64,000 bases of DNA from an uncultured Chloroflexia bacterium. GTDB lineage: Bacteria; Chloroflexota; Anaerolineae; B4-G1; SLSP01. Positions 40,501 to 42,824 of this stretch are shown one piece after another. The notes beneath the pieces were generated by a model. It saw only the letters and a program-made list of their open reading frames with translations, had not been told where the DNA came from and ran no database searches. The stretch spans positions 33,578-97,577 of the forward strand of contig CAVVUS010000033.1 of assembly GCA_963751345.1 (NCBI GenBank), in the 5' to 3' direction. The stretch's first letter is position 1, and every line of letters begins with the position of its first letter. A program made the position numbers and the translations under genes.

Positions 40501-41280
40501 CCCCCGGCGTTCCCAGCGGATCTGTGATCCACGGGCTGGGGCAGGCGCCGGGCGGATCGCAGATCCGCCCGGAACGTAGGGGAGAGCTGCTGGTTACACA
40601 CTGGAGGTAACCCCGGCGTGGTTCGCAGCGGATCTGTGATCCGCGGGCTGGGGCAGGCGCCGGGCGGATCACAGATCCGCCCGGAACGTAGGGGAGAGTT
40701 GCTGGTTTCACACTGGAGGTAACCCCGGCGTGGTTCGCAGCGGATCTGTGATCCGCGGGCTCGGGCAGGCGCCGGGCGGATCACAGATCCGCCCGGAACG
40801 TGGGGGAGAGTTGCTGGCTTCACACTGGAGGTAACCCCGGCGTGGTTCGCAGCGGATCTGTGATCCGCGGGCTGGGGCAGGCGCCGGGCGGATCGCAGAT
40901 CCGCCCGGAACGTAGGGGAGAGCTGCCGGTTTCACACTGGAGGTAACCCCGGCGTGGTTCGCAGCGGATCTGTGATCCGCGGGCTCGGGCAAGCGCCGGG
41001 CGGATCACAGATCCGCCCGGAACGTAGGGGGGAGCTGCTGGTTTCACACTGGAGGTAACCCCGGCGTGGTTCGCAGCGGATCTGTGATCCGCGGGCTGGG
41101 GCAGGCGCCGGGCGGATCGCAGATCCGCCCGGAACGTGGGGGAGAGCTGCTAGTTTCACACTGGAGGTGACCCCGGCGTGGTTCGCAGCGGATCTGTGAT
41201 CCGCGGGCTGGGGCAGGCGCCGGGCGGATCGCAGATCCGCCCGGAACGTAGGGGGGAGCTGCTGGCTTTACACTGGAGGC
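40501..41280. repeat. Tandem array of seven ~112-bp units, each with an inverted palindrome pair (BIME-like)
   Basis: Units start at about 40501, 40611, 40723, 40835, 40947, 41059 and 41171. Each holds GCGGATCTGTGATCC(G/A)C ... GCGGATC(A/G)CAGATCCGC and ends in CACTGGAGG. Confidence 0.95.
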
Positions 41281-41285
41281 CACCT

Positions 41286-42824
41286 TTGTACGAGTTCACA
41301 CTCACGCCGGGGACGCTGTCGCTCGAGCAGTTGCGCCGGATCTACCGGGAGCCGGTCATGCTGACGCTCGACCCCGCGTGCTTCGCCGCGATCGATGCGG
41401 CGCATCAGACGGTGCTCGACGTGCTGGCGACCCACCGCACGGTCTACGGGGTCAACACGGGGTTTGGGATCCTGGCGAACACACGGATCTCGGACACCGA
41501 CCTGGTGCAGCTACAGCAGAACCTGGTGATGTCGCATTTGGCGGGGGTGGGACCGCTGCTCGACGACGCCGTGGTGCGGCTGGCGATGGTGCTCAAGGTC
41601 AACGCGCTGGCGCGTGGGTACTCGGGCGTGCGGCGGGCGACCATCGACCGGCTCGTGACGCTGGTCAACCACGGCGTGACGCCCTGCATCCCGTCGAAGG
41701 GGTCGGTGGGGGCGTCGGGCGATCTGGCGCCGCTGGCGCATATGAGCGCCGCGCTCCTGGGCATCGGCGAGGTCCGGTGGCAGGGAGAGACCTGGCCTGC
41801 GGCGGAGGTATTGGCGGCGCTGGACCTGGCGCCGCTCGAGCTGGGGCCAAAGGAGGGGCTGGCGCTGCTCAACGGGACACAGGTGTCGACGGCGCTGGCA
41901 CTGGCGGCGCTCTTCCGCACGGAACGTCTCCTCGCGCGAGCGCTCGTGATCGGCGCGATGTCGGTGGACGCGGCCTTGGGTACGGACGTGCCGTTCGATG
42001 CGCGGATCCACGAGGTGCGCGGGCTGCCGGGCCAGATAGCGTGCGCGGCGACGTACCGCGACCTGCTGGCGGGAAGCGAGATCCGGCAGTCGCACGCCCA
42101 GTGTTCGCGCGTCCAGGACCCTTACTCGCTGCGCTGCCAGCCGCAGGTGATGGGCGCGTGTCTCGACGTGATCCGGAGCGTGGGGCGGACGCTCGCGACC
42201 GAGGCCGACGCCGTCTCGGACAACCCGCTGGTCTTTGCGGAGCAGGGCGAGATCCTCTCAGGGGGCAACTTCCACGCCGAGCCGGTCGCCTTCGCCGCTG
42301 ACACCCTTGCGCTGGCGATTGCCGAGATCGGGGCGCTCTCGGAGCGGCGCATCGCGCTGCTGACCGACACGCATATGAGCGATCTCCCGCCGTTTCTGGT
42401 GGCGCAGCCCGGCCTGAACTCGGGTTACATGCTGCCGCAGATCGTCGCCGCGGCGCTGGCCAGTGAGAACAAGTCGCTGGCGCACCCGGCGTCGGTCGAC
42501 AGCCTGCCGACATCGGCCAACCAGGAGGACCACGTGAGTATGGCGACGTTTGCCGCGCGGCGGCTGGGCGAAATGGCGGACAACGTCGCGTCGATCCTGG
42601 CGATCGAGTATCTGTGCGCGGCACAGGGCATCGATTTCCGCGCGCCGCTCAAGACCTCGCCGAAGCTGCAGGTAGCGCTGGACCTGCTGCGCGAGCGGGT
42701 GCCGTTCTACGAGGTGGATCGCCCTCACGCGCCGGACATCGCGGCGGCGCGGGAGGTGATTGAGGAGGGAGCGTTGGAGCGCGTTGTCAGTGCCGGGGAT
42801 CTTTCTGAAGTCCCCGGCACTTGA
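41286..42824 (+). CDS. hutH: Histidine ammonia-lyase
   Basis: TTG start 6 nt after [26 protein letters not shown] (MIO), [35 protein letters not shown]. Confidence 0.96.

Follow-up and report, generated by a model that had tools for sequence, protein, structure and literature searches.

The spacer between hutU (urocanate hydratase) and hutH (histidine ammonia-lyase) of an uncultured Chloroflexia bacterium contains an ordered array of hairpin units, each of which ends in a Shine–Dalgarno (SD) sequence. The DNA analysed here, called the window, is a stretch of 64,000 nucleotides (nt) from contig CAVVUS010000033.1 (assembly GCA_963751345.1, positions 33,578 to 97,577 of the forward strand). Within it, the two genes are separated by 818 nt, and this spacer is filled by seven units of exactly 112 bp. 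We read the array as a tandemly amplified REPIN, a doublet of inverted repetitive extragenic palindromes (REPs) folding as a hairpin, with which the ribosome binding site (RBS) of hutH has been co-duplicated and whose hairpins would form a barrier or an attenuator and so favour hutU over hutH. To this reading as a whole we assign a probability of roughly 0.7. The barrier or attenuator function is what we infer by analogy with Escherichia coli, and the regulatory role of the array is probably modest.

Architecture of the array and its REP family

An earlier note on this DNA had described seven 112-bp hairpin units between the two genes, and this description holds at every position read. Tandem Repeats Finder reports a repeat at 40509-41279 with a period of 112, 6.9 copies, 95% matches, 0% indels and a score of 1395. 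The left-arm anchor recurs at 40516, 40628, 40740, 40852, 40964, 41076 and 41188, all six gaps being 112. In the register chosen for the units (40499-41282), the inverted arms are also those of the note: the left arm reads GCGGATCTGTGATCC(G/A)C, with A in unit 1 only, and the right arm GCGGATC(A/G)CAGATCCGC, whose variable position holds A in units 2, 3 and 5 and G in the remaining ones (1, 4, 6 and 7). In each unit, a 19-nt loop separates two cores of 17 nt, namely GCGGATCTGTGATCCGC and the reverse complement of it (A/G at one central position), and every unit terminates in CACTGGAGG.

All units lie on the + strand. Unit 1 (40499..40610) holds the left REP core at 40516-40532 (variant ...GATCCAC), the right core at 40552-40568 and GGAGG at 40603-40607; its first 16 nt are unlike those of the later units and correspond to the original upstream flank. 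Units 2 to 6 occupy 40611..40722, 40723..40834, 40835..40946, 40947..41058 and 41059..41170, and in each of them the REPIN and its tail lead to a GGAGG, starting at 40715, 40827, 40939, 41051 and 41163, respectively. Unit 7 (41171..41282) ends in the working SD of hutH, GGAGG at 41275-41279. Directly after GGAGG stands TAA in units 1-5, TGA in unit 6 and CCACCT-TTG in unit 7, where CCA takes the place of TAA; the stop triplets that the note placed behind the internal copies were recovered at each coordinate. As RNA, the REPIN hairpins have predicted energies of -38.3, -40.8, -42.1, -40.4, -42.0, -40.4 and -40.4 kcal/mol for units 1 to 7.

The seven units are all distinct, with 3-7 differences over columns 17-109. 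The variation recurs at columns 40, 61, 80, 85, 89 and 96, which are six informative sites and confirm the recurring variable positions claimed before. In a four-gamete test, 11 of the 15 informative site pairs show all four allele combinations. This result fits exchange among the units, which the earlier note had taken as real recombination; recurrent mutation or consensus errors are the alternatives, so that this claim stands in part. Column 61 is G in four of the seven units, which gives a G-U pair in the RNA of the + strand and a C-A mismatch on the other strand.

The hairpin is not confined to this locus. The genome that holds the window (G000; 5.4 Mb, 49 contigs, contamination figure 5.64%) contains 74 copies of the core pattern GCGGATCNNNGATCCGC where 0.06 are expected from base composition. 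A slightly looser pattern finds 76 cores, which form 31 clusters spread over 21 contigs, and 60 or more places in the genome match unit columns 17-79. The clusters comprise singletons, seven solitary inverted doublets spaced 35-37 nt, and tandem arrays with periods of ~164, 64 and 60/77 nt; the orientation of the REPs alternates (TGT/ACA centres). Within the window itself, a solitary variant of the core with the centre CCG lies at 55816..55832 (no strand assigned; G000:C33:89393-89409) and shows that the family is dispersed. Furthermore, 28 of the 31 clusters fall outside coding-like frames and the remaining three lie at frame ends, by a crude test which used no gene caller but frames running from stop to stop over 120 codons or more and having coding-like GC3.

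The genome gave three matches in a search for Y1 transposases. One is an open reading frame (ORF) of 198 aa on the minus strand (G000:C19:22198-22794) which scores 81.4 bits with NF047646, the REP-associated tyrosine transposase (RAYT) family (cut-off 80), and 30.2 bits with Pfam Y1_Tnp PF01797 (cut-off 23). An array of 14 cores of the identical REP family, with a 164-bp period, begins 132 nt from its start codon (region G000:C19:22198-24094). The 74 dispersed cores together with a RAYT gene adjoining an array of the same family are the signature of a REP/REPIN-RAYT system: the palindrome is dispersed and extragenic, its inverted doublets fold as a hairpin, and the transposase gene has REPs of its own family beside it. 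On these sequence features, the hut hairpin is shown to be a REPIN of a RAYT-linked dispersed REP family.

The other two Y1_Tnp matches lie at G000:C19:139605-139862 and C23:278943-279176 (35.6 and 34.5 bits) and may be RAYTs or IS200-type transposases. Among the three relatives searched with the RAYT (G002, G015 and G005), G005 has a copy which is 48% identical and interrupted by an internal TAA. Two pairs of contig segments look alike by eye across flanking genes and REP arrays (C19:98650-99100 and C31:11050-11500; C32:2250-2780 and C39:21620-22150). Either the segments are paralogous, or the bin contains two strains.

Origin of the SD-bearing linker

Outside the array, matches to the 112-nt unit span only about columns 8-87. 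The 52-nt linker which bears the SD matches its seven array positions and nothing else of note in the 5.4 Mb, all other hits being at most 21 nt long with E of at least 0.65. Since it is found only in the array, the linker is a local sequence and not a part of the dispersed family.

A search of 41 genomes (G000 and 40 relatives) with the unit gave some match in seven, and besides G000 only one of them, G002, matches over the full 112 nt. G002 is a different species of the same genus, and the N-terminal 200 aa of its HutH are 86% identical. Its hutU-hutH spacer of 448 nt contains three REPINs followed by one single REP, with periods of 112, 149 and 111 nt. The REP core is absent from this spacer in the other 12 genus loci where hutU adjoins hutH, two of which contain masked runs. 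In metagenome contigs, a 28-mer of the junction had no match, and an 18-mer common to G000 and G002 had 15, none of them with a REP core or any likeness to the locus; we regard these as chance matches.

The hutH leader of the sister species is GGAGGTAACCTTTG, which reads GGAGG-TAACCT-TTG. The TAA or TGA behind the internal SDs of the window is thus the inherited spacer between SD and start codon and no purpose-built stop. Moreover, the 149-nt junction of G002 consists of the SD, TAACCTTT and then a segment in which 22 of 23 nt match hutH nt 55-78 of the window genome, a score reached by none of 500 shuffles. This junction continues into sequence homologous to the window's own pre-array flank at 40468-40516 (local alignment score 21, reached by 5 of 500 shuffles). 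In the window, the flank before the array (40468..40498, + strand) runs on into unit 1 with its 3' part (GGGATCCCCTCCCC...) and is homologous to the left side of this long junction. The 112-nt junction corresponds to the long junction minus 36 nt. Lastly, the left flank of the unit resembles hutH nt 85-108 (21 of 25; 2 of 500 shuffles reach the score). This likeness might mark the original crossover point; it is a lead only, as the pre-array flank gives the better alignment for this stretch.

Taken together, sequence comparison indicates that the hutH RBS is co-duplicated with the REPIN, because the sister species preserves the ancestral leader, its junction contains a relic of hutH coding sequence and the linker is unique to the locus. 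The idea that a REP doublet took up the hutH RBS and was amplified, already put forward from the window alone, is supported. The course of events may have been as follows. The spacer of the ancestor shared by G000 and G002 would already have held a REPIN. The stretch copied by a tandem duplication with its right end inside the 5' part of hutH would then have comprised REPIN, linker, SD and start codon as well as about 80 nt of hutH, and deletions would have removed the start codon and the coding remnant from the internal copies, leaving the 112-bp unit. Growth by unequal recombination or slippage, with exchange between units, would have led to seven units here and to three REPINs and one collapsed REP in G002. 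The order of duplication and deletion and the growth by unequal recombination are the probable sequence that the two species suggest.

The same spacer carries other repeats elsewhere in the genus. In G012 (L122, G012:C96:5899-9489; minus strand of the locus, about 2091-2274) it holds two ~84-bp tandem units derived from two different hairpins, each ending in GGGAGGATGTAG, which repeats the last codon and the stop of hutU. Here another repeat family seems to have undergone a parallel tandem duplication at the same place. The spacer of G004 (L121) contains ~590 nt of simple tandem repeats, and those of G003 (L123) and G020 (L120) contain runs of short tandem repeats. Throughout the genus, the hutU-hutH spacer seems to act as a trap for repeats.

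Expected action and competing explanations

For the whole unit, with unit 2 as the example, the + strand folds at -56.4 kcal/mol (z -3.48) and the - strand at -52.2 kcal/mol (z -6.12), and in the predicted fold of the whole spacer adjacent units can pair with one another. For every copy of GGAGG itself, the predicted unpaired probability is 0.21-0.31. Around the last SD the region is more open, at 0.57 vs 0.28-0.36 around the six internal copies. No terminator-like site, defined as a GC-rich hairpin with a U-run, was found in 40468-41285, the sole two such sites being at 38523 and 39045, and the scan for promoters and terminators returned no sigma-70-like promoter inside the array. The genome encodes Rho (598.5 bits, cut-off 509) and PNPase (942.6 bits, cut-off 525).

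In E. coli, REP arrays within operons block exonucleases and partly attenuate transcription, so stabilisation of hutU and lower expression of hutH-ftcD would be expected here. On a polycistronic mRNA, seven hairpins of about -40 kcal/mol and without a U-tract would block 3'-to-5' exonucleases and partly attenuate read-through. By this analogy, the hutU mRNA would be stabilised and less hutH-ftcD would be made per hutU, to an extent scaled by the copy number of the unit. Only the last SD would serve the translation of hutH. The six internal SDs would be decoys at best, the GTG initiation region behind them running into the hairpin.

The same element with the same origin could also be a neutral passenger, selfish or slippage-prone DNA in a permissive spacer which has no measurable effect on hut expression. 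The spacer collects unrelated repeats in G012, G004, G003 and G020, which suggests weak constraint; G000 and G002 differ in copy number and in the structure of the unit; and the accessible text of the preprint on E. coli REPs reports variable effects. However, seven hairpins of about -40 kcal/mol within 818 nt of mRNA are unlikely to go unnoticed by exonucleases, Rho or ribosomes, and the more open region predicted around the working SD (0.57 vs 0.28-0.36) fits a last unit that was kept functional. We therefore hold neutrality to be unlikely, although it deserves more weight than any other alternative considered below.

The internal SDs deserve closer attention. The earlier note had stated that only the last of them is followed by a start codon. 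The canonical spacing of 6 nt is indeed found at the last SD alone, but a GTG follows each of the six internal copies of GGAGG at 10 nt, so that the internal SDs are not strictly start-less. In unit 2 this codon lies at 40618, and each of the frames comprises 34 codons and ends at the TAA or TGA of the next unit. The frame of unit 7, which starts at GTG-41178, runs into hutH as an ORF of 548 codons (window 41178-41285 in frame), since the change of TAA to CCA before the hutH start has fused the two in the window genome. A HutH extended at its N-terminus from this frame is possible but unsupported.

These frames could form a translational relay, in which translation of each mini-ORF melts a hairpin and passes ribosomes to the next unit and finally to hutH; alternatively, the SDs could load or sequester 30S subunits, with copy number as a rheostat. 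The GTG codons of units 2-7 are in frame with the next stop or, for unit 7, enter hutH, and the last frames of G002 stop at a TAA which precedes the TTG of hutH by 3 nt. Coupling of a unit-borne ORF to the downstream gene has been proposed for MIRUs, the interspersed repetitive units of mycobacteria, according to the accessible part of PMC12548453. The variable sites of the 34-codon frame include six synonymous and six non-synonymous ones, vs 2:10 and 4:8 in the other two frames, a count which is far too small to weigh. On the other hand, the corresponding frames of G002 have 56, 59 and 22 codons with other sequences, so the mini-ORF peptide is not conserved. An open frame of 34 codons is unremarkable at 63% GC (estimated chance about 0.4). 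The GTG also lies 7 nt before the base of the hairpin, in a structured initiation region, and its spacing of 10 nt is long. The arrangement follows passively from duplication of the hutH leader, and the 34-codon frames are a passive outcome of it. We consider a relay or SD decoy very improbable as the function of the array.

Another proposal concerns the fate of the transcript, for which the earlier note had suggested processing into small RNAs: seven two-hairpin small RNAs might be cut from it and act in trans like the naRNAs proposed for REP325 of E. coli. The architecture is that of REP325, which the accessible text of the preprint names as the proposed source of six two-hairpin naRNAs (bioRxiv 10.64898/2026.03.23.713779). 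According to the same text, however, REP325 has no measurable compacting effect on the chromosome and acts locally (bioRxiv 10.64898/2026.03.23.713779). Furthermore, no Rfam family reaches its threshold: a scan of 38000-43000 with Rfam 15 at E <= 1 gave four matches, all to microRNA families, with 22.9-27.3 bits against gathering scores of 80-83. Such small RNAs are, in our estimate, the least credible of the explanations considered.

The barrier or attenuator reading also has a bolder form, in which the array is an evolvable copy-number rheostat for the HutU:HutH ratio. Each unit would add a hairpin barrier and a decoy SD with a mini-ORF start, and unequal recombination would shift the dose of the first enzyme against that of the second, within populations and between species (7 vs 3.5 units). 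The other species of the genus would have recruited other repeats for the same end. We regard this extension as speculative and rather improbable.

Several observations weigh against the hairpin barrier with its co-duplicated RBS, or limit it. Contigs from four of the eight sequencing runs considered (word shares all 0.05-0.11) do not span the array and leave most of it uncovered; the count of seven units is that of the assembly. Co-transcription of hutU and hutH is putative and suggested by their adjacency, which is kept in all 14 genus loci. The effects of REPs in E. coli are context-dependent and of large variance in the accessible preprint text (bioRxiv 10.64898/2026.03.23.713779), which makes direction and size here uncertain, and RNases and Rho may behave differently in a host of another lineage. 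As to the REP family, REPs flank the RAYT gene of G000 on one side only in the assembly, and G002 gave no close homologue of this RAYT as query (best E 2.7e-4), although its genome matches the REP unit 37 times. In the hut, C19, C31, C32, C39 and C44 arrays, the family has GTTCC/GGAAC as its conserved head and not GTAG or CGTC; GTAG follows the right arm in only five of the seven hut units and is unseen at the other REP loci read.

The array could also be an assembly or polishing artefact, with fewer or identical units at the true locus. No read or contig spans it in the runs examined, and the near-duplicate contig pairs together with the contamination figure of 5.64% make mixed strains possible. 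Yet the sister species, assembled independently, has an array of another structure at the same locus. The period of 112 is exact, without indels, over seven distinct units, and the assembly is contiguous (49 contigs for 5.4 Mb). In addition, a single contig of 142 nt from an unrelated run aligns to 40929-41065 with 6 differences; it is no evidence on copy number or expression. An artefact is accordingly most improbable, though slightly less so than small RNAs cut from the array.

Known systems, neighbouring genes and significance

The closest functional comparison for the tandemly amplified REPIN is REP325, a bacterial interspersed mosaic element (BIME) of 12 hairpins between yjdM and yjdN of E. 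coli. In the accessible text of the preprint it is described as a partly Rho-dependent terminator which stabilises the upstream mRNA, and E. coli tandem gene pairs with REPs have a higher upstream/downstream ratio genome-wide (bioRxiv 10.64898/2026.03.23.713779). As far as that text goes, both loci have tandem REP doublets (six there, seven here) between co-directional genes, and both are highly structured and without a canonical terminator. In contrast, the linkers of E. coli BIMEs are family-wide motifs, whereas the linker here is locus-specific and copied from the downstream SD region, and the lineage is different. The alternating orientation of the REPs is that of an E. coli-type BIME, but the linkers are not shared, the other arrays of G000 having other ones.

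In the accessible text on Pseudomonas fluorescens SBW25, 16 tandem REPIN clusters are reported, 'including the flanking sequences', with clusters beside each RAYT gene and singlet REPs interpreted as decayed REPINs (PMC3116915, Bertels and Rainey 2011). The largest cluster is given as four REPINs and one REP, over 700 bp (PMC3116915). Tandem REPINs with flanks, clusters adjoining the cognate RAYT and singlet REPs, the three features described there, all occur here too. Compared with what that text describes, the present array differs in having seven REPINs in 784 bp, a flank which is the working translation signal of the next gene, and an intermediate preserved in a sister species.

MIRUs are variable-number tandem units of ~50-100 bp in the intercistronic spacers of operons, with an ORF that overlaps the downstream start at -4. 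The accessible part of PMC12548453 holds that the unit-borne ORF is thought to couple to the downstream gene and to keep it translated. On that description, the likeness is one of intercistronic variable-number units carrying short ORFs. Unlike the units here, MIRUs do not consist of REP hairpins. The unit length of 112 is no multiple of 3, and the frames here lie 7 nt apart and are not conserved between species. Instead of overlapping the downstream start in a conserved frame, the last frame is fused to hutH in G000.

The accessible text of Di Nocera et al. 2013 describes tandem reiteration of REP dimers together with flanking DNA and reports GTAG repeats from Chloroflexi, among other phyla (PMC3733652). 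Unlike the GTAG and CGTC super-families as presented there, the family here ends in GTTCC/GGAAC, and neither tag defines it. A literature search, with subscription journals and supplements outside its scope, returned no REP/REPIN or BIME array which duplicates a downstream SD. The kind of array is already known; what is particular here is the number of seven REPINs, the position in a string of catabolic genes, the RBS as a co-amplified flank and the intermediate in the sister species.

The genes around the array are well defined. hutU (38719..40467, + strand) encodes 582 aa and ends with TAG at 40465-40467; its product has the Urocanase N, Rossmann and C domains of Pfam and scores 945.9 bits with NCBIfam TIGR01228 (cut-off 375). 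hutH (41286..42824, + strand) has 512 codons and starts at TTG 41286-41288, 6 nt past GGAGG. Its family searches used a query of 515 aa (41277-42824) which begins 9 nt upstream of TTG in the same frame, and gave 634 bits with Pfam Lyase_aromatic and 691.8 bits with TIGR01225 (cut-off 539). The N-terminus of HutH reads LYEFTLTPG, and relatives align from residue 1-7 on. HutH was also searched against named genome contigs; the 80 loci returned are 57-66% identical, come from other groups and say nothing about the spacer. Downstream lies an FtcD-like gene (43009..44508, + strand; glutamate formimidoyltransferase with a cyclodeaminase-like C-terminus) with matches to Pfam FTCD_N, FTCD and FTCD_C and 380.5 bits with TIGR02024. 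Elsewhere in the window, 28015-28083 holds a 17-nt unit in 4.0 copies with 98% identity.

The array is a natural record of how a REPIN array grows, as the sister species keeps an intermediate with a piece of the downstream gene. This intermediate junction implies that arrays of this kind are built by local tandem duplication rather than by transposition, and that functional signals of adjacent genes are swept into the repeat. The related species furthermore provide a natural series of 0, 3.5 and 7 units, in which hairpin number could be set against the upstream/downstream expression ratio, a relation debated for E. coli REPs. Finally, REP-RAYT systems with large, ordered arrays are here carried beyond the usual proteobacterial models, into a lineage rich in metagenome-assembled genomes.

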